Positions 9,876-44,443 of a stretch of DNA of 64,000 nt are shown piece by piece; the stretch's first letter is position 1, and every line of letters begins with the position of its first letter. Origin of the DNA: Fistulifera solaris (taxonomy: Eukaryota). Location of the stretch: contig AP026148.1 in NCBI GenBank assembly GCA_030295235.1, forward strand, positions 744,001 to 808,000, read 5' to 3'. The notes under the pieces are model-generated. The model saw nothing but the letters and a program-made list of their open reading frames with translations. It made no database searches and was not told where the DNA came from. A program made the translations under genes and the position numbers.

Positions 9876-12800
9876 ATGACAGCGTCATCGTCGGTTACTG
9901 TTGAGGCATTGTTACACGCCGATACGGTCCACGCGTTGTTGCGACTGTCAGAAAACACTTTCAAACAAGGCGCTCCACAATTCACGAAAGCACAAGCTCG
10001 TCGCTTTTTCGGGATGTGGTTGGATCAGTTTGCGATGGCTATGGAAGAAGAAGTTTTGCAACGTGTCGCACAAATTTTAGTGTATTATTTAAAACAACCG
10101 AAACCTGTCCTTTTGCAAGTCATGATCGACTTGACCAGACATTTGCACGATGCTTTAACGGGCGATCTTTCCCTGAAAACGCGACAAACGATCTTGTCGC
10201 TTTGTGAATTGTGGTGGAAACAAGATTTTCCGCAAAAGAACAATTCATTGCAAATGCTTTGCCGTATTGGTTGGAATCACCGGAAGATGCGGCGGCGGTA
10301 CAGAAATTGTACGAATTGAAGGACGCCCTCGATTGTATTGATTTTGCCGCTGATGAGTCCTTACGAGCGGCCGTCTTATCGCTCGTCTCCAATCCGCTCG
10401 TGTTGAAAACGGGAAAGAAACTACTGGTTCATCTTTTGCAAAATCGAGATTTGATCGAACCCTTGCATCAAGCCATCAAAGTACAACTGGTCGGCAACAA
10501 AACCAAAATTGTCAATGTGTACGCTGATGTCTATTACAAGGCGTATCATGAGACGAAAGATCCGGAGCTGCAAGATGCTTTGGAACACATTGTCTGGTCC
10601 GATTTCGTACAAGCCGTGTTGCATGCGGCCGACCCTGATACTCACAAGGCGGTTCGCATGGTCTTACAACCCCTGCATGCGGCACAAAAACATTACGAAG
10701 CACTCTTGCATCGTTTATATGGTCCGATTCTCTGGCGTGCCTTGTCGGCACCACAAACACAAGTTCGCTTACAAGCGGCGCAGATACTCCCGGAAGTATT
10801 TCCGTTGCGGGAGAACACAGCAGTGCCTTGGCAGCGGTCGAACAATGTGTCACGGCCTTGACCGGCTTGTTGGAAGATCGGGTTCCCAAAGTCCGCGTGG
10901 CGGGCGCTTCCGCGACGGCACAAGTGCTGTGTGACTACTGGACCATTTTGCCGCTGGCCAGTATTCGCATGTTGTTGAATTGTACGTAACGATGGTGGGT
11001 GACATTGTATTATCAACACGCTTCTCACATTTTTTCACAGGGCTTGTCACCAAACATGCATCAGATACGTCATCAGCGTCGGTACGAGTGGGAGCGTTGA
11101 ATGCGGTTAGTCTCGTGTTGCAAAATCCTCAGTCCCATGCTGTGTTACGTCCCCTCTTGCCGTCATTGGGGAATTTGTTACACGACAAGACCGAATCCGT
11201 TCGCCTTGCCACAGTACGAATGCTTCTTTGTGTCAAGGAAACATCCGATTTGGCGTACTACCATGTCGTCCCGGTCTATCACTTGAATGCACGATTGGCC
11301 AACGAGGTAGTGAACAGTTCCGTCGCGGCTGCACTTACATCGCTTTTGATGTCATCATACTTTCCTCCAGACCCGGCGACACAAATTGCCCGTACGTTGC
11401 ATTTCTTGCAAACCGATCCCCAGGCTGCTGCAACCTTTTACGCCAATGTGCATCGCTTTTTGGACACGGCACAGGTTGCGGCCTTGGCGGCCATGTTGTG
11501 GCAGACGGTTTTGACGGCGGTTGAGACGGAAAAGAATCATCAAAACAAGTTGCAATCTTCCGATCCGTCTGGAAAACGACGCAAGAAAGCCGCTGCGAAA
11601 GATGATAACGAGAATAATGCTAAAGGAGAAGAAGACGATGAAGACTTCTTTTCGTCGGCCGATGCGGCTCTCATGGTGACTTTGACCGACACGATCAATG
11701 TGTTGTGGGGGTCTATTGCGAAAGATTTGCACGAAGACGTTGTTTCCTTTTTGGTGGACCATATGGAGGATTGGAGTGAAACGCTTCAACACTTTGAGAC
11801 CAATCCTGACAATCGTCTTGTGGTGCAGAACATTTTAAAGATTGTTCGCCGCCTACCATCTTGTGACGATTTGAAAATCAATGCAGAGAATTTGAATGTC
11901 GCTGGATATTTGTCCGTTTACTGTCATTGGGGTCGTTCTGACGAGGTGATTTCATGCTTGGCCAAGTCCCTCGAAACGAATTTGGGAGTAGAAGAAGAAA
12001 TTCTGTTTTCGACTCCCGAAGCCAAAACCAAGAAACGAAAAAGCCGTCGCGGAAAACAAGGCGAAAGTATCGAGTCGCTACCTGCTTCGGTGGCACTGAA
12101 GGTAGTGCATGAACTCTTGCAAGATCCTGACATTCGTCACTATTTGCTCTCGCCTGTGCTCGAAAAGGCGTTGGAGAAGGGCACCAAGCTTGCCGAAAAG
12201 ATGCTGAGCCGTGATCGAGTAAGTAAAGACGTCATTTTCTGGCTAGCTTGATTTCAGGATACTAACGTATATACTCGAATTTCTCTGGCAGATGATAGGC
12301 GAATCTGATATTGACTTCGTTTTGCGTGTTTGTGAGATTTATGGTCGCTTTGTCTTGCATCAGGCAGCGGCAAGGGATGAACCAAACTTGATCATGACTC
12401 CTCAAGCCGTGAATTTGCTACGTTGGATGTCGGTCAAAGTGATTCCCATGTTGAAAGATGTCGATACTGACCAAAGCTGTGCCGAGTCAAGCATTCCGTT
12501 TAATGATCCGGATCTTTCTACAATTGCTGTCGAACAGAGTTTTGCGGATTGGCCAGCATCACCTACACCTGCCGGTCCGCCTCGTCGCCGACGTGATACC
12601 AAGGCAACTCCCAATCGTGTCGAAGTCGAAAAGCGGTCTTCGTTGAGTCCCGATATCCCTCGTGCGCTGGCAATTTCTTTGGTGCAACTGACTTGCGTTG
12701 TGTTTGCCGAATGGCTTGCAATCAGTGGGGGCGTGGGAGGATCTATCATTGATTCTCAGTTGAGTGAATGGTTCTCGGCTGTGTCCGACGATACTACTGT

Positions 12801-13834: not shown

Positions 13835-14632
13835 GATAAGGCAATGAAAGGAAAGTATTTGACAGAGAAGTAGAAGGAATATCGATCTCTGCTGATGACT
13901 GACGTTGATTAATGAAGGTGATAATGGGGATCGCAGTGATGGGTGATGGGTGGAAAGTCAATGTTCACTATCTATTAAAAAAGTATTTCAGTTACTAAAG
14001 AGGGAAGATAAAACGCTTCGGATGTCTACCAGGTACGTGAAATTCACGTAAGCCTCGTAGGAATTTTATCTCCGTAGGATTAACACCTCATCAATTCTCG
14101 GGTCTGACAGCGACAAGCTTCATCGTAACATTGCTGAACAAACCTGCAGCAAGAATCATCAGTTTTTGGAACATCAAACCTAAAAAGAACAACAAATGCA
14201 ATGTTGCGAATGTCAACGTGAATTTCACCTTGGCCCCGTGGGAAATTTATCGACAGGTTTTATTGGATCCGGTTAGCGTTGTTTTGAAAGAACTACCTAA
14301 TGTTTTCTTTTCCTTGTTCGAACAGTTCAATAGTTACTAGAACTGAGAAGTACAAAGTAGTTAGACGAAAGCCTAAGGAGACCTTTTCGTGACATGATTA
14401 TCAGTCATGAGTCATGAGTGAGTCACGGGCCGTGTATGTGTCACGATTGCTTATTGTTAAACTTCTTTTTTTAGTAAACGCACAATTAACGGTTTCTTAA
14501 CGCTCACCGTTCACCTCTGTCTGCCGCCACTCATCGTTTAAAACACACGAGCTCGAAGTCGAAGCTCGACATCAGTGTCATGTCATGCTATGAACAATTC
14601 CATTGACAGAAAGAGAAACCAAGCAAGCAGTG

Positions 14633-34909: not shown

Positions 34910-36199
34910 ATGACAGGAATGACTTATCGTTTTCTAGTAGCAACAATCGTATCCGCAGCACTGTTGTTGTCGGTCGCCACAGCCTTTCAACCGCTGCAGC
35001 CGCAGCAAACACCGAAGCGACTCGCTAGTGTAAGCGTTCAAAGCTTAGTTGCGCCTACGGACGAGAAGAAGGCAACAATTGCTGCATCATGGCCAGCAAC
35101 CGGAATCCCCAATCACAAAATATTAACCAAAGCACAAGAGCAAAAACTAGGCAAAGCGATACAAAGAGCACGGAAATTACGGCAATGGCTTGAACAGCAT
35201 CCAACACAAGCAAAGATACCGCTCGACGACGCTTCCATCGTTTATGCGCTTTCTTCCTCGGTGACTTCGCACGAATCATCATCGTATCACAACTATACGC
35301 AAGCTCAGATCGATACTATTCTCGAGAAAGGGCACCAAGCCAAGCAAAAGTTGATGATGTACAACCTCCGACTAGTATCAAAAATTGCCAAGAAATGGGC
35401 GTACATGACACACTATAAAAATGGCGATTACATCTCGAATGCCAACGATGGCTCACTCACGCGTCCTTCCATACAAGAAGCCATTCAAGAAGGCATTGAA
35501 GGACTAGCGAGGGCCGTTGATCGTTACGATCCGACCAAAAATTGGCGATTCTCAACGTACGCTACATACTGGATCACCGACTCGATCCGCAACTGCTATG
35601 CATCGGCATCAAACGGTCATGCGATGCGATTGCCCTCCGCTTATCACGAAACAGTCGCGCGTTACAAGTCTCTGATCAAAGAACAGTACCACCTCTACCA
35701 AGCGGCACCTCCCATGGAAAATTTGGCGGCGCAGATGGATTTGAAGCTTTCTCGTTTGCAGAAAATTCTTCGACTCGCTCAGCCTCCTCTGTCCTTGGAT
35801 GGACCCACTTCTTCGTTTGCGAGTGCTGGAAAGTCGGGCATTGCGGATGCATCAACGACTATGCTCGGAGATATCCTGGTCATGGGCACGTCGGAAGATC
35901 CGGAAGCGCTGTTGGAATGGAGTATGCTGCGAGGTGCGTTAGAGCACGCGTTAGTGACCCAATTGTCACCCCATGAACGCGACGTCGTACGACTTCGTTC
36001 AGGGTTAGATGATGGCGTGACGAGGACGTTTCGACAAGTTTCTGTGGATTGTTACGAAGGAAAATTAAGTCCCGTGCAAATTCAGGTGACGTGGGTCAGG
36101 GCCTTGAAGAAACTTCGTTCTCCGGAAGCGTTATCGAAGTACGGATGGATGTCCTATTTCGAACTGTGCGATGTGGACCCCGAGAGTGTTTCTTTGTAA
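34910..36199 (+). CDS. SIG: Nuclear-encoded plastid RNA polymerase sigma-70 factor
   Basis: Leader ending VATA-FQP; region 1.2 ILTKAQEQKLG; region 2 NLRLVSKIAKK, IQEGIEGLARAVDRYDP..RFSTYATYWI; region 4 LSPHERDVVRLRSGLDDG..RALKKLR. Confidence 0.93.
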   Translation: MTGMTYRFLVATIVSAALLLSVATAFQPLQPQQTPKRLASVSVQSLVAPTDEKKATIAASWPATGIPNHKILTKAQEQKLGKAIQRARKLRQWLEQHPTQAKIPLDDASIVYALSSSVTSHESSSYHNYTQAQIDTILEKGHQAKQKLMMYNLRLVSKIAKKWAYMTHYKNGDYISNANDGSLTRPSIQEAIQEGIEGLARAVDRYDPTKNWRFSTYATYWITDSIRNCYASASNGHAMRLPSAYHETVARYKSLIKEQYHLYQAAPPMENLAAQMDLKLSRLQKILRLAQPPLSLDGPTSSFASAGKSGIADASTTMLGDILVMGTSEDPEALLEWSMLRGALEHALVTQLSPHERDVVRLRSGLDDGVTRTFRQVSVDCYEGKLSPVQIQVTWVRALKKLRSPEALSKYGWMSYFELCDVDPESVSL

Positions 36200-36494: not shown

Positions 36495-36650
36495 ATTGCG
36501 GGATATTATCTCGAGTTTCCTGTATTCATTGTGCTTCTCCCACGGTGAAAAGATATCATCACACGCCAACGGCGTGTAGTCCATGATATTATTCAAGGGA
36601 TTTAATCCAGGCTAGTCCGGGCAATTATCAAGGAAAGGATTGGGACATTT
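36495..36650 (-). pseudogene. Remnant of an M43 metalloprotease C-terminus
   Basis: Minus strand reads KCPNPFLDNCPD*PGLNPLNNIMDYTPLACDDIF, homologous to CPNPLPDTCPNQPGPDPLNNIMDYAPLGCDDIF of the 43295 gene; has an in-frame stop and no recognisable upstream part. Confidence 0.8.
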
Positions 36651-37634
36651 AACAGTGAGCAGGACGCAGGATGCAAACCGCAAGTCAAGTTGTTTAAATA
36701 ATGTCCAATGCAAAATACTATCAACTCCCAAGCACCAAGGCCTACTGCTTACTTGACATTGACCTCGAGCAATGAGCCATGCGCAACGGGCACTCTAAAT
36801 ATTATTAAACTAGTTTTCGGCAGTAAATGTACTCTGGAGCTTTTTAGCTTCCGGTAGATGACAGGAAGTAGGATGGCGGGACAGCAGATGACTTAGATGA
36901 CCGGTAAAGGTCGCAATCTCGCGTCTTTAGCTAGAGTTAAAAAATCAGGATTGATGACTCATGACCGAAATGCAGTCGTGGTAAAGTTGATACAGCACTT
37001 GAGGCTTATAATAAAAGTGGATGTCATCGATCCGCAAAGATTTTCGACGTTTACAAAGCGAGGCGTGCATTGCAAAAAAATACTGTACGAATTTTAACAT
37101 AACGCAGCAATATCTTTTGTCCTTTGCTTACTAATCTTGGCGAATGCACTATTTAGCAATTTCGCCTGTAAAAACATTAGTCGTGACTCATTTTATATAC
37201 GACTGAATTTCGGTGTGGAATTTATATCCCATCTTTTCAAATAATAATTTTCAAAATACCTTGTTGACGAAAGCGTGAATGACCTTATTAACAGGGTAAT
37301 GCTTTATTGCATTACAAGTAGAGCTATCGAATTGGACATCGGAATGATAAGCTTTGGATAATCAGCACAACCCGTATTTTGACTTACAAACAACCTTACT
37401 GTCACTGTCGTTCACTGGCAACAAGAGTTTTTGAAGGCCGAATGAATGAGACGAAACGGATGGCGCTCGATGCGAGATAAAAGATCGAATGAATGAGGTG
37501 TTCAAAGATTTTTCGAGACCCGCACCATTGGATGTGCTGGTGGCTTCTGAGCCACTCGATCTTGTGCGATCTTTTAACGTTTTTGGATCTTTCGCCACAA
37601 TCTCATCTTCTTATTATTACTTCTCAACAACACC

Positions 37635-38419
37635 ATGAAGATCGGTAATTACGCCATCGCCGTTGCGGCACTTCCCTCCTTGAGTTGGGGAGCTCGTCAT
37701 CCTACCTGCCAGACGTTCTCGGATTTGTACGCCGATGGAACGGAACTTTGCGAGAAGATGTTTTCTGATGCCTTTGTCGTCGTCCCCGACGATCAGCCGG
37801 CCTATCACATGTGGTTCTTTGATACGGATAACAATCCGAACGACCAAGTCACTCGTGATATCTTCGGCACGGAACCTGTCGAAGAATGCAACGTGCAGTA
37901 CTTTCACAAAGAAGTGCCGAGCCCGGAAGGCGACGACATGGGCGAGTGTCATCCGTGGAAGCAGCGTTCTTGTTGCCACAGTGAAACTGTCGGAAGCGTT
38001 GAAGAGATGAAAGCGCTTTACGGAAGTAGCTGGGATCGCTGCGGAACCATGTCAGAAGCCTGCGAGCGTTTCTTTGTCTTTGAACTCTGTTTCTACGAGT
38101 GCGAACCCTCGGTTGGTTTGTTTCGTCGCTTCAATGATAGTCAGACGGATCATCCTGACTTCAACACCTGGCAATTGTATCAGATGCCTATGAAGAAGAG
38201 CTATTGTGATGCGTGGTTCGACGCCTGCAAGAACGACTTCTTTTCCGAGGAGCGATTCTCGACGATCAAGGAGAAGAAGGAAGTGGACAAGCTCGGCGTC
38301 TCGTTGGTGTCATCGGCGCATTCGCTTTCCTTCTTTGTCTCTTCTCCTCGTTCTTGGTTCACCGTGAACGCAGTGGCAAGCCCGTGTTTGTCGCTGAAAA
38401 GGCGAACCCTGTGGCTTAA
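37635..38419 (+). CDS. Folate-receptor-family (FOLR-like) protein, copy 1; frameshift near 38305
   Basis: Signal peptide; ECHPWKQRSCC, WDRCG.MSEACERFF..ELCFYECEPSVG, MPMKKSYCDAWFDACKND. The C-terminal TM and tail are in the +1 frame (GVIGAFAFLLCLFSSFLVHRERSGKP) as in copy 2. Confidence 0.88.
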
Positions 38420-38458
38420 ATCGTTTTGAGATACGTTTTGCAACACGGATAGTATGAA

Positions 38459-38589
38459 ATGATACTCTCACCGCGGGAGCTTTGTGATGTGGGTAATGGC
38501 TGAGAAATTAAAAGAGTCGGAAGATTCTTTGTTGACCGTTCGAACCTGAACATGGTAATGCATGCGAAAGGGAAGGTGAGATGTGTCAT
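38459..38589 (+). ncRNA. TPP riboswitch aptamer in the 3' region of FOLR-like copy 1
   Basis: P1 TCTCACC(38466-72)/GGTGAGA(38575-81); GCGGGAGC...GGCTGAGA; GACCGTTCGAACCTGAACATGGTAATGCATGCGAAAGGGAA matches the TPP core; extra hairpin AAAGAGTC-GGAA-GATTCTTT. Confidence 0.88.
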
Positions 38590-38702
38590 GGAAATATGAT
38601 CACGATAGTGTTGCTATGAGGACGTTTAGTTGGTTATCATAGTAGTGAAAAGTGACTATTGAATTGAATCGTTTCTATTGTCTATTGCGCGTTTACTTGT
38701 CA

Positions 38703-39770
38703 TCATGATCGACTTCGAATATTTCTCCATGCTTCCCGCATCCGTCGTGCCTGACCCTCTGTGAAAACATCGTCACAGCCTAAAGGAGCGTAATCCATAA
38801 TGTTGTCTAAAGGGTCTACACCAGGCCGATCCGGACAACTATCCGGCAGCGGGTTGGGACATGCACCAAAAGTTCGTCCATAGTACCAGCTTTGTGCGTT
38901 CGTGTCGTCTACCAAATCTCCTGGAGAACATCCACCGTCAAACGTGTGAAGAAGATTCAGCCAGTGTCCTATAATAGAAAAGAAAGTCGACCAGTGAGCC
39001 TTAGCAGAAGAAGAGAAACGCAAAAGGCGATCGAAGATAATAGCAAACTTACCGACTTCATGCGCCAGTGTCGTTTTATCGGTAGCGCAATCGGTATCGA
39101 CCACAATGCCGTCCCCCTTTCCCATGACCTTGGCATTCTCCGCTAAGTTTGCGTAACCGCAATAGCGACCACCAAACATCCTGGCTGCTTTGTAGTAGAC
39201 ATTGAGTGTTTTGAAACCCCCTTTTCTGTGTTTCTTTTCCCTATTGTTTTGTTCGACGGTATTCCATTCAGAATCATACCAGGTTTTATCCACTACGCGA
39301 TTCGTCGCGACGACATTCAGCTGAAATCCGGTCGAGAGAAGGAGTTCGTTTGTTATATCGATGTTTTCCTGTAAAATTTCATCCGATAAAAAACCGGTTT
39401 CGTTATCTTTTTGAATGGCGTGGATGTATGTGGTGATGTTGACAAAGCCACCATTCTCCGGACCGAAGTCTTCATCGTCAATATCATCCTCAGGGTTGCA
39501 TCGAAACAGACGATTATTAGAGTTTGACCTCCTTTCCTGCTCATATTGAGCAAGGGATAAACGCTCTTGCTGTGCGACGGCCATTTCTTCAATGGAATGA
39601 ACATCGGGCGCTTGAAATCCACAACCATGAGGAGCATCGGAAAGATCTCGTCGATGATGAAGGTGATGGTGATGATGAAGGTGATGAGAGTCGTCATGCT
39701 TCTCGTGATTATGCGCGAGGACAGCGGATGCTGTAAGAAGACCGATAATAATGGAATCGATTTGCATCAT
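38703..39770 (-). CDS. Secreted M43 (pappalysin/ulilysin-like) zinc metalloprotease A; intron 39052-38969
   Basis: After splicing: HEVGHWLNLLHTF zinc motif and Met-turn NIMDY; cysteine-switch-like HGCG; signal peptide plus His-rich N-terminus. Confidence 0.9.
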   Translation of the reverse strand: MMQIDSIIIGLLTASAVLAHNHEKHDDSHHLHHHHHLHHRRDLSDAPHGCGFQAPDVHSIEEMAVAQQERLSLAQYEQERRSNSNNRLFRCNPEDDIDDEDFGPENGGFVNITTYIHAIQKDNETGFLSDEILQENIDITNELLLSTGFQLNVVATNRVVDKTWYDSEWNTVEQNNREKKHRKGGFKTLNVYYKAARMFGGRYCGYANLAENAKVMGKGDGIVVDTDCATDKTTLAHEVGKFAIIFDRLLRFSSSAKAHWSTFFSIIGHWLNLLHTFDGGCSPGDLVDDTNAQSWYYGRTFGACPNPLPDSCPDRPGVDPLDNIMDYAPLGCDDVFTEGQARRMREAWRNIRSRS

Positions 39771-42198
39771 TGCGGCACAACAAAATAAAAAAATACTCCG
39801 TATCTCTTTTAATTTTGTATTTTGTGTCAACCAAGTCAATAATCAACAGCATCTCTCCCTCGTCAACAAGTCAACTTGGTAAAATTCTGTGTTTCTTTAC
39901 AACGTTCTTGGCAACTTTCAGCGTAAGTACATAAGCCCTCTCATCATTTTCTTGAAAATCAATCACTAATCGGAAACCACAATACAGAAATGTACAGCAA
40001 AATGCAGCGCAATACTTAACGTCTGCAAGTCGATAAGAAGACAATTAGGATATCAGTTGTCAGTTTGGTTTAAGCCTGAATCCGATGATCTTCGAAATCT
40101 GTCACAGTTGAAACTTTTCATTTAGTACCTGGTACATTGCAGATTGCAGAAGAAACTGGCGCGCGCTCCGGTCACGTGATTGCCCTCTTTCTTCTTGGAA
40201 GGAGAAACAAGCGAAGGGCACGGGTTTATGTTGATGCGATGCGAATGACACAGGAAGTATACAACGATGGCAGCGATTTATAATAACAAAGAGGAATGCA
40301 ATAATTCACAGTAATCATTCGTGAAGTCTTTTGCCTGAGTCGTAAGATCATCAAAATTAAAGCTGAAGACATGACGACGACAGAAAGATAATTCACATTT
40401 TTTACTTCACATCTCTTGCAATTCCTGTCATCGCGAGACCTTTAATGATAAACAGAAGACAATCGAATGCATCCTTCGCTTTCTTAACCGAGAGGATTCT
40501 GTCTGATTCGACGAATTCACTTTTCCAAGACTGAAAGGTGGGTTCTGCATTGGAACGCCGGCACTTTCCAAGCGAAGGGTCGGCATCAGCGCTCTAGGAG
40601 TGGGCAACGGCGGCGGAAGCGTCAGATTCATCCGTAAATGCTGCCTCATCCAAGCGAACGCCTCGAATTCATGGACCGTTTCATTACGTAACTGATCAAT
40701 CAAGGAATCGGAGAAAAGGGATTGCGTCCGCAAGTTGAGACACTGCTGACCCAATGTCGATTCTTGAATGGGAAAATGCGGAGCTGAGAAGTCTTTCTTA
40801 GAGAGCAATTGCATCTAATTCCCATGACTCGGTGCAGCGTCGACCAGGTGAATTGCGTTTTGATTTTCAGGTGGCAGCTGAACTTTGGCCTTGTTCAGTG
40901 AGCGGCGGTTGGTCGTTGCTTTACTAGCACTTTGGTCGCGACAGAAGTGAGGGTGCGAAAGCATCTGACAATCGGTCGGAAAGCCATGGCGAGTTGGCGG
41001 TGACCGGTTACTTTCGAAACCTCCCGCGGTACACCTTACAAACGAAACTTTCGTATTTCAAGTTGCCAAAGAATCTCCACAGCCATTTCACAAAGAGGGC
41101 GTTGGGGTCGCAAATGACGACAGCGGTTCCATTGAGAGCCCAAAAATTGCTTCCTGCTCCATTTTTCGACCATTCCTAGTGCATCTGCGCTCGATATAAG
41201 TCAACATCAACATGAACGTTGGTACAAATGAGTGAGACTTGCTTGAATCATGATGCATTTGTGCGCAAAAAAAACTTCGTACCCTCTCTAGAAACGTCGG
41301 TTCGCTGTTGAAATCTAGCGTGTACGTAAAAATCTCTGCTGTGGGGAGATGATTAATTGCGTGGGTGAATTCGCTCGTGTTTCGAGCCGGTTGTGAGCTG
41401 TTCGATGCTCCCTCCGCTGGCCTTGCCACGTTATCTAATTTCTCAGACAGAGTATCCTGGGCAGGGGGTTTGATATCGTCCAGTTTGGGACTCGCGTCAT
41501 TGTCAAAAACTTCCGTCGGATTTGACGCAAATGTTAAACCTAACCTTTTCTCAAATAATGATGGTGAATGAGGAATAATCAACAGTCGATCTTTTCAAGA
41601 TTCCTTTTTTTTAGGTGACGCACCTCAACCATCAACAAGCGCTAGTCTGCTAAGAAGAAGTACGGAGTAGATCTTAGATTTAGATTGGTACAGTAAGTAG
41701 TACTACGAACTTCTCTATCCAAGTTCGAAGTTGAAACTTTAGAGGGAGAATAGTGGTATAAAATGAGTCCGGATACCTGGTACGGATCGTAGGTATTTTG
41801 AGGCCGGGTACCTTAACGAGGATAGTAAATGACATCGTAGAGATTTCAGGTTCTGCAGCTTTTCTTTCGCAGCACAGACAACAGACAGCATAAGCAAACG
41901 GCAAAAGCCAGTAAAAATAAATTAATACTTCTTCTTATCACAACCAAATACATTTGATATTATCTGAAAACTGATAATTACAGGATAGTGATTTGTTAAT
42001 CTGTGATCTGAGGAAGATGGAGAGATGATGATGATTGATTCAAACAAAATGTGAAATGGGTGGTGCTGGTGCGCCTGCCAAAGATGCCGATATCTTCGGT
42101 TGACGAAGATCTTGACACGCAGGATTTGACCTGAGCCACACAAAATAAGCAATCTTTAAAATAAAACGCAACAACGTATCTTTTGTATCACCAAGGCC

Positions 42199-42999
42199 AT
42201 GAAGATCACGAACTACGCTATCGTCTTTGCGACCCTCCCTACCTTGACGGGGGGAGCTCGTCATTCCTCTTGCAAGCCGTTCACGGAGATTTACGCCGAT
42301 GGAACGGAACTTTGCGAGAAGATGTTTTCTGATGCCTTTGTCGTCGTCCCCGACGATCAGCCGGCCTATCACATGTGGTTCTTTGATACGGATAACAATC
42401 CGAACGACCAAGTCACTCGTGATATCTTCGGCACGGAACCTCTCGAAGAATGCAACGTGCAGTACTTTCACAAGGATGTGCCGAGCCCGGAAGGCGACGA
42501 CATGGGCGAGTGTCATCCGTGGAAGCAGCGTTCTTGTTGTCATGGCTCTACGGTTGCCAGTGCCGAAGAACTGAAGACACTCTACGGCGGCGGCCCGGAC
42601 AAGTGCGGAATCATGTCGGATGCGTGCGAACGCTTCTTTATCTTTGAGTACTGCTTCTACGAGTGCGAGCCCTCAGTTGGTCTCTTCCGCAAGTTCAACG
42701 ATAATCAGACAGATCATCCGGACTTTAACACCTGGCAATTGTATCAGATGCCTATGAAGAAAAGTTACTGTGATGCATGGTTTGACGCCTGTAAGAACGA
42801 TTTTTACTCCCAAGAAAGCTTCTCGCCGGAAGAGCCCAAGGAAGTGAACAAGCTCGGCATCTCGATGGGTGTGATGGGTGTTCTTTTTTTCGTTCTTTGT
42901 GTCTTTTCCGCGTTCTTGGTCCACCGTGAACGCAGTGGTAAACCCATGTTTGGTACGTCAAAGTCGGTTCCTCCGGCAGAAGGCAATGTCGGTATTTAA
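42199..42999 (+). CDS. Folate-receptor-family (FOLR-like) protein, copy 2 (intact, type I membrane)
   Basis: 266-aa ORF: signal peptide, Cys-rich FOLR domain, C-terminal TM and short tail. Confidence 0.9.
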   Translation: MKITNYAIVFATLPTLTGGARHSSCKPFTEIYADGTELCEKMFSDAFVVVPDDQPAYHMWFFDTDNNPNDQVTRDIFGTEPLEECNVQYFHKDVPSPEGDDMGECHPWKQRSCCHGSTVASAEELKTLYGGGPDKCGIMSDACERFFIFEYCFYECEPSVGLFRKFNDNQTDHPDFNTWQLYQMPMKKSYCDAWFDACKNDFYSQESFSPEEPKEVNKLGISMGVMGVLFFVLCVFSAFLVHRERSGKPMFGTSKSVPPAEGNVGI

Positions 43000-43033
43000 A
43001 TAAACGGGCCGTGTAACAACGTGATCTTGTGAA

Positions 43034-43163
43034 ATGATACTTCTGCCGCGGGAGCTTTGTGATGTGGGTAATGGCTGAGAAATGAAAGAGTCGAAAGATT
43101 CTTTGTTGACCGTTCGAACCTGAACATGGTAATGCATGCGAAAGGGAAGGTGAGATGTGTCAT
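43034..43163 (+). ncRNA. TPP riboswitch aptamer in the 3' region of FOLR-like copy 2
   Basis: Same core as 38459-38589 (GCGGGAGC..GCTGAGA..GACCGTTCGAACCTGAACATGGTAATGCATGCGAAAGGGAAGG); hairpin loop GAAA instead of GGAA; weaker P1 5' strand TTCTGCC. Confidence 0.85.
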
Positions 43164-43294
43164 GGAAATATTATCATCTATGTTGTTACAATGCAAGAAA
43201 GTAGAAAACATAGTAGTGAAAACGTTATCTATGAATCTATTATGAAAAAGGAGGTTCTTGCTATCGCTGTGGCTATCCTATTGAATCGATATCT

Positions 43295-44443
43295 TCACCG
43301 ACTGCGAATGTTGTTCCAGGCTTCTTGCATCCGTTGGGCTTGACCTTTGGTGAATATATCATCACATCCCAAGGGAGCATAATCCATGATGTTGTTCAAG
43401 GGATCCGGCCCTGGTTGATTCGGGCATGTATCCGGCAATGGATTGGGACAAGCACCACTCGTTCGTCCATAATACGATTTTTGCGCGTTGGTATCGTCCA
43501 CCAAATCTCCCGGCGAACATCCACCCGAAAATGTGTGCAACAAGTTCAGCCAATGACCTAAAGAATGAAAGTACAAGATGACAAGTTAGTGAAATGTCAT
43601 ACGCTACTTTCACTACGGTCGATGATTATGGAACGTACCAACTTCATGTGCCACAGTCGTGCGATCCAATGCACAATTGATATCAATGGTGACACCATCA
43701 CCGTTTCCTACAGCCGCAGCATCTTCCGCAAGATAAGCATAACCACAAAATCTACTGCTTCCGGAAACGGCAAGTTTGAAATAAATATTGAGTGTGTTGA
43801 TTCCTCCCCTTTTCAATTTGGCCTGCATATCTTGTTCTTGTGCTGATCCCGATTGTGCCTGGAACCAGTCGTCGTTTTGTACACGGTTGATGGAAATGAC
43901 ATTGATTTGAAATCCGGCCGTTGATAATAAGCTGTTCGCGACTTGAATACTCTGATTCAGCGTGCTGTCGGAAAGAAACCCCTCTCCGTTTGTCCGAGAT
44001 ACGGCATGTATATACGTCGGAATGGAGACTTGAGAATTCCAGTTACCACCGCCACCACCACCGCCGCTATCATTTCCGCCACCGCTTCCACCGCCATCGC
44101 TTCCGCCAGTGTCGTCTCCATCCCCCGGATTCCAAGCACTTCCACCTCCACCTCCTCCTCCACCAAAGGAAATAGAACAGCCGCCTTGTTGTTGCTCATA
44201 CTGTCGTTGTTTCAGTGCGAACTGTTCTTCTTCGACACGAGCGACCCGTTCTTCCTGTTCGGCTTGTAATTGATAGATTTCGTGCACCGCCGGTTCGTGG
44301 AATCCGCAGCCTTGCGGTGTTTGGGCTAGTAGTTGCTGTAATCGACGGTCTCCGTGATGGTGGTGTTCATGGGCCCCTACGAGCGCTGGTATCATCCATA
44401 GTGGTAAAAGAGTGAGGCATTTTGGTACAATGGAGCAAAGCAT
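43295..44443 (-). CDS. Secreted M43 zinc metalloprotease B with Gly-rich insert; intron 43638-43558
   Basis: HEVG|HWLNLLHTF with the intron at the same codon as in paralog A; NIMDY; QGCG; HEHHHHG after the signal peptide. Confidence 0.9.

Follow-up and report, generated by a model that had tools for sequence, protein, structure and literature searches.

The diatom Fistulifera solaris carries, within the 64,000-nucleotide (nt) stretch analysed here (contig AP026148.1, positions 744,001 to 808,000; the window), two tandem folate-receptor-like (FOLR-like) genes, each followed on its own strand by a thiamine pyrophosphate (TPP) riboswitch aptamer in the 3' untranslated region (UTR). Weighing the evidence below, we put a probability of about one half on the reading that a TPP-binding 3'-UTR module damps FOLR mRNA without splicing, on the gene of a receptor that binds thiamine or a precursor, and that the module of copy 2 is impaired. 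We saw directly the identity, strand and position of the aptamers, the clade-wide association of aptamer and protein family, covariation in the stem, and contigs that run from the coding sequence into the aptamer. The reading is supported by matches to the Rfam TPP model RF00059 on the FOLR strand in which all conserved ligand-contact motifs are kept, and also by a predicted protein pocket that keeps the acidic residue and the aromatic pair of the pterin site, and not the folate-specific residues.

TPP aptamers behind two FOLR-like genes

The locus consists of two tandem copies of one unit, A at 37624-38971 and B at 42188-43560 (79.4% identity over 1396 nt, blastn), each comprising a FOLR-like gene on the plus strand, a structured 3'-UTR element and the last exon of a convergent Peptidase_M43-like gene on the minus strand. 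FOLR copy 1 (37635-38419, +) and copy 2 (42199-42999, +; 266 amino acids) end in stop codons at 38417-38419 and 42997-42999, respectively. A first-pass annotation of this DNA had called both genes FOLR-like, and the PF03024 (Folate_rec) profile places both in the family, scoring 126.6 bits (E 1.2e-36) for copy 1 and 116.4 bits (E 1.6e-33) for copy 2 against a cut-off of 29.8. The exact copy 2 protein is already present in public protein sets and shows 92% identity to FisN_9Hh020.

The RF00059 model, whose gathering score is 54.3 bits, was run over the whole window with cmscan and, in a permissive scan, over 42900-43300. At the gathering score the whole-window scan returned one match only, aptamer 1 at 38463-38591 (+; 56.3 bits, E 2.4e-8, full model 1-105), which begins 43 nt past the stop of copy 1. 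Aptamer 2 at 43038-43164 (+) begins 38 nt past the stop of copy 2 and scored 52.1 bits (E 1.6e-9 in the 401-nt search), just under the curated score. The proposal that a TPP aptamer lies some 35-40 nt behind each FOLR stop was therefore confirmed on the plus strand in both copies, with a score above the Rfam threshold for copy 1 and below it for copy 2. Sub-threshold scores are usual for this lineage, since the gathering score is reached by 3 of the 16 FOLR-linked aptamers found behind stop codons in environmental relatives (38-60 bits; see below).

In the cmscan alignments every upper-case consensus position was matched in both copies, which carry GCGGGAGC, CUGAGA, ACCG..GAACCUGA, GGUAAUGC and GCG..AGGGAA on conserved model positions. 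The ligand-contact motifs stand in order, with CUGAGA on the pyrimidine side and ACC..GAACCUGA, GCG and AGGGA on the pyrophosphate side. All motifs listed in the first-pass annotation were thus found in place in both copies except one P1 arm, because the 5' arm TCTCACC occurs in copy 1 only and reads TTCTGCC in copy 2, where cmscan flags three non-standard P1 pairs. As had been described, the inserted P3 hairpin AAGAGUC / GAUUCUU differs between the copies in its loop only (GGAA vs GAAA). The P1 of copy 1 forms 7 Watson-Crick pairs plus an extension (-13.2 kcal/mol), and 0 of 180 pairs of arms taken across different loci were as good; that of copy 2 has, by eye, 3 Watson-Crick pairs, 3 wobbles and 1 mismatch (-7.1 kcal/mol), and 10.6% of the cross pairs were as good.

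FOLR-linked aptamers in environmental relatives

Relatives of the FOLR proteins were collected in a scan of metagenome contigs, and the best 80 of 196 were taken, with Rfam scans at E <= 0.01. A same-strand RF00059 match was present in 53 of these 80 loci and reached the gathering score in 31 of the 80. The match lies after the stop in 16 of the 53 aptamer loci (3'-type) and ahead of or over the start in the other 37 (5'-type). The 3'-type aptamers stand 42-200 nt past the stop, and their 16 loci represent 14 distinct sequences (L066-L068 are identical). No RF00059 match was found in 27 of the 80 loci, 16 of which have less than 100 nt of flank on the relevant side, and some loci with enough flank, for example L017 and a subclade of 16 rows, are without an aptamer.

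In a maximum-likelihood tree of 92 proteins the position of the aptamer changes once. One clade unites all 16 3'-type loci with all six diatom-named matches and window copy 2. The other contains all 37 5'-type loci, and the named relatives closest to it are the dinoflagellates Prorocentrum, Polarella and Effrenium. Compensatory pairs were found at 3 of 11 predicted pairs among 12 diatom-type aptamers and at 9 of 16 among 20 5'-type aptamers. The 12-nt P1 arms paired at a mean of -8.7 kcal/mol within a locus vs -3.6 kcal/mol across loci (14 real vs 180 cross pairs). A relative of the M43-like peptidases was not found in any of the 80 loci, and a conserved FOLR-peptidase gene pair was rejected on that ground.

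The 5'-type loci showed features of their own. In all 37 (among L020-L078) the aptamer stands at the extreme 5' end of the contig, and in the 32 without overlap with the ATG its end lies a median of 26 nt (1-136 nt) ahead of the start codon. Locus L040 (aptamer at L040:1-171) starts GCCATTTTGGCTCAAG, CTCAAG occurs within the first ~20 bases of L033, L041, L042, L051, L059 and L063, and L060 starts CTCAA. We take CTCAAG to mark where the dinoflagellate spliced leader ends, in which case the 5'-type aptamer would follow the leader immediately and be part of the mature trans-spliced mRNA. On a minor branch of its own (L054, L062, L077 and L078, and L050) the ATG lies inside the P1 3' arm, 5-7 nt before the end of the Rfam match, which suggests that the start codon could be occluded in the bacterial style.

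A long closing stem in the 3'-UTR module

Each window aptamer sits on a longer stem, forming a structured module of about 175 nt that starts 12-20 nt past the FOLR stop codon. The module of copy 1 (38440-38614, +) carries the aptamer atop an interrupted closing stem of ~29 bp made of P1 UCUCACC/GGUGAGA, AUGAUAC/GUGUCAU, GUAU/AUAU with GAU/AUC, and the outermost helix GCAACAC/GUGUUGC; that of copy 2 (43012-43190, +) has GUAACAAC/GUUGUUAC as its outermost helix and a weakened inner P1, UUCUGCC/GGUGAGA. The spacer between stop and aptamer had been described as diverged, and its identity between copies is indeed 33-50% (38395-38461), but it is not neutral, as it forms the 5' arm of the outer helix.

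Folding of 38436-38618 returned the TPP architecture with a minimum free energy (MFE) of -52.5 kcal/mol (z -3.18; 0 of 200 shuffles as good), and 43008-43194 folded with a closing stem of ~30 bp (MFE -50.2 kcal/mol, z -2.07; 8 of 200 shuffles as good). The 45-nt flanks alone form duplexes of -32.2 kcal/mol in copy 1 and -28.8 kcal/mol in copy 2, as compared with a mean of -13.3 (standard deviation 4.0, best -27.5) kcal/mol for 178 cross-locus controls. When the arms 12-45 nt out were taken alone, 17.5% (W1) and 4.5% (W2) of cross pairs were as good, with a real mean of -12.5 vs -8.7 kcal/mol.

Further evidence for the stem comes from the F. solaris aptamers printed in Table S1b of Llavero-Pasquina et al. 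(2022, New Phytol, PMC9544697; here and below quoted from those parts of the paper that were accessible). By eye, P1 takes the forms UCUCACC/GGUGAGA, UCUUGCC/GGUGAGA, UUUUGCC/GGCAAAA and UCUUUCC/GGGAAGA among these paralogues, and the step from UCUCACC/GGUGAGA to UUUUGCC/GGCAAAA involves three double changes. The helix next to P1 reads AUGAUAC/GUGUCAU behind FOLR genes and AUUGCAC/GUGCAAU behind THI5-like genes, also by eye. RNAalifold on both full modules returned 0 compensatory pairs because MAFFT left the outer arms out of register, and the case for compensation in the outer helices therefore rests on two separate folds and on reading by eye. Overall, support for the long stem is good in Fistulifera and at a few loci (L007, L066) but does not extend to diatoms in general; over all diatom loci the outer arms alone did not outperform the controls.

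As a separate observation, the extended flanks seen at FOLR genes recur around the aptamers that follow the THI5-like/NMT1 genes of F. solaris, for example ...GGAAGAUUAUCAC...GUGUUGCUGUGGAG downstream (by eye, Table S1b of PMC9544697 against 38575-38625). It seems from these flanks that the whole module, and not the aptamer core alone, spread between the FOLR and the THI5-like/NMT1 families.

Identity tracts between the copies

The aptamer block is 90-100% identical between the copies, and the stretch after 38602 is 28-55% identical. Sliding identity resolved two tracts that stand amid surroundings of about 50-80%: a coding tract of 240 nt at 100% (37736-37975; flanks 52-75%), and an aptamer tract at 38522-38600 (97.5-100% in 40-nt windows) that covers the 3' half of the aptamer and the P1 3' arm. 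As synonymous sites are also identical throughout 37736-37975, gene conversion is the simplest reading of that tract, and both are likely to be gene-conversion tracts between the copies.

The P1 of window copy 2 combines a 5' arm of the copy 2 type (UUCUGCC) with a 3' arm of the copy 1 type (GGUGAGA), whereas the homoeologue of copy 2 has the matched P1 UUUUGCC/GGCAAAA (Table S1b of PMC9544697 as accessible, by eye). Since the arm types are mixed in copy 2 and matched in its homoeologue, conversion seems to have given copy 2 the 3' arm of copy 1 and thereby weakened its P1. The near-identity of the two aptamers, with its change confined to the hairpin loop, had been called consistent with selection on RNA structure in the first-pass annotation, but is probably in part the product of gene conversion; selection itself is better evidenced by the compensatory changes among paralogues and in other species.

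The aptamers belong to the FOLR genes

Four sequencing runs of one study, X1-X4, none of which is on record as RNA, cover the locus as contigs. Run X1 covers all 30 bins, as DNA would. The contigs of X2, X3 and X4 cover 37612-38550 only, that is, copy 1 from 23 nt ahead of its ATG, and those at 38329-38550 (X2, X4) and at 38378-38500 and 38471-38550 (X3) continue past the copy 1 stop and reach 88 nt into aptamer 1. Their shared end at 38550 lies 30 nt past the last difference between the copies, and we therefore attribute it to a branch point of the assembly rather than to the end of an RNA. X2-X4 left copy 2, the peptidase genes and the intergenic DNA uncovered, which we do not read as silence. 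The pattern of these three runs fits complementary DNA.

The environmental loci provide independent support for an aptamer inside the FOLR transcript, since 11 of the 16 3'-type loci are on short contigs of 1.0-1.5 kb with a full open reading frame (ORF) followed by the aptamer. Both window aptamers lie on the plus strand and the peptidases on the minus strand, so that a peptidase mRNA would hold the reverse complement only. The aptamers therefore belong to the FOLR genes, as the first-pass annotation had it, and not to the convergent metalloprotease genes, and each gene, which encodes a PF03024-like protein and has a TPP aptamer on its own transcript strand within a UTR, falls into the ATS1/FOLR-with-TPP-aptamer group (ATS1 is described below). 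This corrects the gene assignment of two published aptamers from metalloprotease to FOLR.

P2 reads GCGG and not AGGG, which sets both aptamers apart from the splicing type of eukaryotic TPP riboswitch (plants, green algae, fungi). No splice joints were present in the contigs of the four runs over the locus, which drop rare forms. A splicing mechanism was rejected on these two grounds, no AG in P2 and no joints in contigs.

The FOLR-like protein is circularly permuted

In the window, copy 1 is frameshifted: the ORF from 37635 ends at 38429, and the frame ending at 38419 requires an extra G after 38305. The missing G lies in a G run (38305/38306). It was seen in the sole X1 contig over the site (depth 12.4 of 12.4) and is also implied by the public F. 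solaris 'folate receptor' P0002 (261 amino acids; alignment with both frames translated), to which copy 1 corresponds, frameshift aside. Its absence from the window reflects an assembly error or else an allele. Taken as it stands, the copy 1 of the window loses its membrane anchor through the frameshift.

The copy 2 protein has a weakly to moderately hydrophobic N-terminus, an ectodomain with 12 cysteines, and a strongly hydrophobic segment at ~218-244 that coincides with a predicted helix at 218-245 (AlphaFold2 from 65 sequences; mean predicted local distance difference test score 73.6). In the tail just past the membrane helix (42916-42999), E244, G247 and F251 are invariant and P249 is kept in at least 90% of the 65 sequences; such a conserved cytoplasmic motif might serve in sorting or in the binding of a partner.

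Among solved structures the closest are FR-alpha, FR-beta, Juno and the chicken riboflavin-binding protein (PDB 4LRH, 4KMZ, 5F4E and 6HCE), which hmmsearch matched at E 1.6e-30 to 2.5e-21. Foldseek gave a probability of 1.0 and a template modelling score of 0.40-0.46 on the target, aligning only ~120-125 of the 266 residues because the segments stand in swapped order: residues 22-83 correspond to the C-terminal part of the receptors (Juno 154-217, FR-alpha 146-205), and residues 79-204 to their N-terminal part (FR-alpha 9-130). By these predicted alignments the FOLR-like domain is circularly permuted relative to the animal folate receptors and Juno, and does not have the segment order of the solved animal receptors. 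A literature search found no paper tying the folate-receptor family to circular permutation. Along most of its length the dinoflagellate-type protein shares 43-49% identity with amphioxus proteins, and by this likeness the permuted arrangement may reach beyond algae. Animal folate receptors are anchored by glycosylphosphatidylinositol. The diatom protein shares the cysteine-rich fold of these receptors, Juno and the riboflavin-binding protein, and differs from the animal receptors in its transmembrane anchor, its swapped segments and its want of folate-tail contacts.

We compared the putative pocket of copy 2 with the folate contacts of FR-alpha (D81, R103, R106, H135 and S174; stacking Y85 and W171; tail W102, K136, W138 and W140), as listed in the accessible part of PMC9055165. 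Most of these contacts are absent, and copy 2 does not have the folate-contact set. The acidic pterin hydrogen-bonding residue D81 is kept as E150, and the stacking Y85 as Y154; the stacking W171 is F43 in copy 2 and W in most relatives, and the pterin-bonding S174 is A46 in copy 2 and S in most relatives. The tail contact W102 has a similar residue in F176, the pterin-bonding R103 is replaced by N177, which is invariant, and R106 by Q180, and the pterin or tail residues H135, K136, W138 and W140 have no aligned counterpart. From this comparison we infer that a pocket which places an acidic residue between a pair of aromatic rings would be as suitable for an aminopyrimidine ring as for a pterin.

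Relation to published TPP riboswitches

Putative TPP aptamers have been reported for genes with a FOLR domain in both Halamphora sp. MG8b and F. solaris by Llavero-Pasquina et al. (PMC9544697), who proposed thiamine transport by receptor-mediated endocytosis for FOLR. ATS1 (Algal Thiamine Sensitive 1) of Micromonas RCC299 is a PF03024-like gene with a TPP riboswitch, and its expression increased 80-fold when thiamine was absent (McRose et al. 2014, ISME J, PMC4260697). Like the diatom genes, ATS1 combines a PF03024-like protein that has no transporter-like topology with a riboswitch in the 3' UTR; unlike them it comes from a green alga, although PMC9544697 states its homology to the diatom FOLR genes. 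The rise under thiamine deprivation is known for Micromonas RCC299 ATS1 only. The pairing of aptamer and FOLR gene is thus already known, thiamine-capture hypothesis included: with that hypothesis stated in PMC9544697 and implied by ATS1 in PMC4260697, neither the pairing nor the idea of its function is new, and the first-pass annotation had itself mentioned FOLR-linked TPP aptamers in algal surveys and unresponsive diatom aptamers.

Its suggestion that the duplicated context is novel did not hold, because both copies and their homoeologues are already in Table S1b of PMC9544697, which prints both window aptamers letter for letter, with flanks. They are placed there on the plus strand of scaffold BDSP01000064_1 at 9987-10022 and 14561-14596, a spacing of 4574 nt that equals the spacing in the window, and homoeologues are listed behind FisN_9Hh020, 9Hh026, 9Hh048 and 9Lh048. 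The table gives the window aptamers to the metalloprotease genes FisN_9Lh025 and FisN_9Lh019, flagged as not thiamine-related, and the homoeologous aptamers to FOLR-like genes. In its accessible parts that paper makes no mention of a closing stem, of gene conversion between the copies, of a weakened P1 in copy 2 or of a permuted protein. The THIC and SSSP aptamers of Phaeodactylum are of the same diatom type as the window copies, with GCGG in P2, a P3/P3a insert and a place in the 3' UTR without a nearby acceptor AG, but they stand on other genes and, when tested, showed no thiamine response (PMC9544697). A literature search found no functional work on FOLR or ATS1 later than the papers of 2014 and 2022.

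A TPP riboswitch in the 3' UTR of plant THIC was reportedly described by Wachter et al. in 2007. That riboswitch is, like the window copies, a eukaryotic aptamer in a 3' UTR. According to PMC9544697 its type uses alternative splicing via an AG in P2, in contrast to the window aptamers with their P2 of GCGG and no joints in contigs.

No new principle emerges from the window, although its two aptamers, one with an intact and one with a mismatched P1 on near-identical cores, form a natural experimental pair. Both the function of FOLR and the silence of diatom 3'-UTR aptamers are directly testable questions.

Proposed mechanism and alternatives

Vitamin B1 and its precursors shape marine phytoplankton communities, and we know of no eukaryotic algal binding protein for either that has been characterised. 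With 53 of the best 80 of 196 environmental loci, in two large algal groups, FOLR/ATS1 is the most consistent unexplained partner of TPP aptamers. In the mechanism that we favour, the aptamer would bind TPP inside the FOLR mRNA, and the bound form would lower FOLR mRNA output in the replete cell, acting independently of splicing on the stability of the mRNA or on the formation of its 3' end. At the cell surface or in endosomes the protein would bind thiamine or a pyrimidine precursor and so feed uptake. Because gene conversion mismatched its P1, copy 2 is probably the weaker or an impaired switch. TPP binding, any regulation and the ligand of the protein are thus what we infer.

Several points weigh against this mechanism. 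Copy 2 is under the Rfam threshold with a mismatched P1, and the aptamer cores alone fold no better than shuffles (z -1.47 and -0.90). That runs X2-X4 derive from RNA is a guess. A closing stem of ~30 bp should keep P1 shut with or without ligand, which disfavours a simple P1 toggle. According to PMC9544697, the F. solaris FOLR proteins have no signal peptide by SignalP 4.1. The same source reports that the 3'-UTR aptamer of Phaeodactylum THIC is unresponsive, with transcript level, splicing and polyadenylation unchanged, that a Phaeodactylum reporter was not regulated, that mutation of the aptamer left thiamine pools unaltered, and that T. pseudonana THIC is also unresponsive. The long closing stem may bear on the negative Phaeodactylum results.

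The main alternative is that the diatom 3'-UTR element is shaped like a TPP aptamer and conserved but no longer responds to thiamine, serving instead in mRNA stability, localisation, 3'-end definition or protein binding, with a tie between FOLR and thiamine optional. We regard it as possible, though on balance unlikely. From the lack of response of Phaeodactylum THIC and the lack of a clear one in T. pseudonana, the authors themselves infer another conserved function (PMC9544697), and the long covarying stem with conserved flanks, common to the FOLR- and THI5-like-linked F. solaris aptamers, looks fixed and not bistable. However, the ligand-contact nucleotides are invariant across the diatom and dinoflagellate-like lineages, which is hard to explain without ligand binding, and the aptamer keeps tracking thiamine-related gene families. 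ATS1 is thiamine-sensitive in Micromonas (PMC4260697), and the diatom aptamers that have been tested are not FOLR-linked.

A wider reading, which we consider rather improbable as a whole, would make the entire ~175-nt module, an aptamer capping a covarying stem of ~30 bp, the functional unit. In Fistulifera this module may have been copied behind two unrelated thiamine-salvage families, FOLR-like and NMT1/THI5-like. TPP at the tip would alter the handling of a long double-stranded 3'-UTR hairpin, the route being nuclease access or 3'-end formation beside a convergent gene. The encoded protein would have a folate-receptor fold that is circularly permuted and adapted to an aminopyrimidine (thiamine, hydroxymethylpyrimidine or a degradation product), and the system would be common to diatoms, in the 3' UTR, and dinoflagellates, in the 5' UTR directly behind the spliced leader. 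If true, this would be a splicing-independent eukaryotic riboswitch, and the reporter and P1-centred tests made so far could have missed such action.

That the aptamers are decaying relics, near-identical through recent duplication and gene conversion and with no present function, is quite improbable. The 100%-identity tracts in the coding sequence and the aptamer 3' half and the P1 of copy 2, left mismatched, fit such a history, but aptamers are kept after FOLR stops in 14 distinct environmental sequences of the diatom clade, and the six FOLR-linked paralogues and homoeologues of F. solaris carry compensatory changes in P1 and the outer helices, as far as Table S1b of PMC9544697 could be drawn on. 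Very unlikely, too, is a true folate or riboflavin receptor whose TPP aptamer only cross-regulates vitamin uptake: against the strong PF03024 match and best structural matches to FR-alpha, FR-beta, Juno and the riboflavin-binding protein stand the replacement of R103 and R106 by N177 and Q180, the unaligned H135, K136, W138 and W140 and the permuted domain order, and Juno shows that the fold need not imply vitamin binding. Finally, Table S1b of PMC9544697 puts both aptamers in annotated 3' UTRs of the convergent M43 metalloprotease genes FisN_9Lh025 and FisN_9Lh019, whose stops are only ~90-110 nt off, an assignment that is hardly credible given the opposite strand, the FOLR assignment of the homoeologous aptamers in the same table and the lack of an M43 relative in the 80 loci.

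Neighbouring genes

Two convergent genes flank the modules. The Peptidase_M43-like gene a (38703-39770, -) has its stop ~90 nt from the end of module 1 and lies outside the riboswitch unit; its paralogue b (43298-44443, -) is 45% identical to it. In Table S1b of PMC9544697 aptamer 1 is given to gene a and aptamer 2 to gene b. The N-terminal regions of both peptidases are histidine-rich. As their stops are only ~90-110 nt from the aptamer modules, the M43 and FOLR 3' UTRs may overlap in antisense.

A fragment at 36495-36647 (-) is similar to the C-terminus of the M43-like peptidases (51% identity over 51 amino acids), and within it 36550-36601 matches 43353-43404 at the DNA level; the whole-window cmscan gave no RF00059 match nearby. 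This fragment may be the remnant of a third duplicated unit. Upstream, at 34910-36199 (+), lies a sigma-70-like ORF with Sigma70_r2 and r3 domains that is unrelated to the aptamers and is presumably a nuclear gene for a plastid sigma factor.

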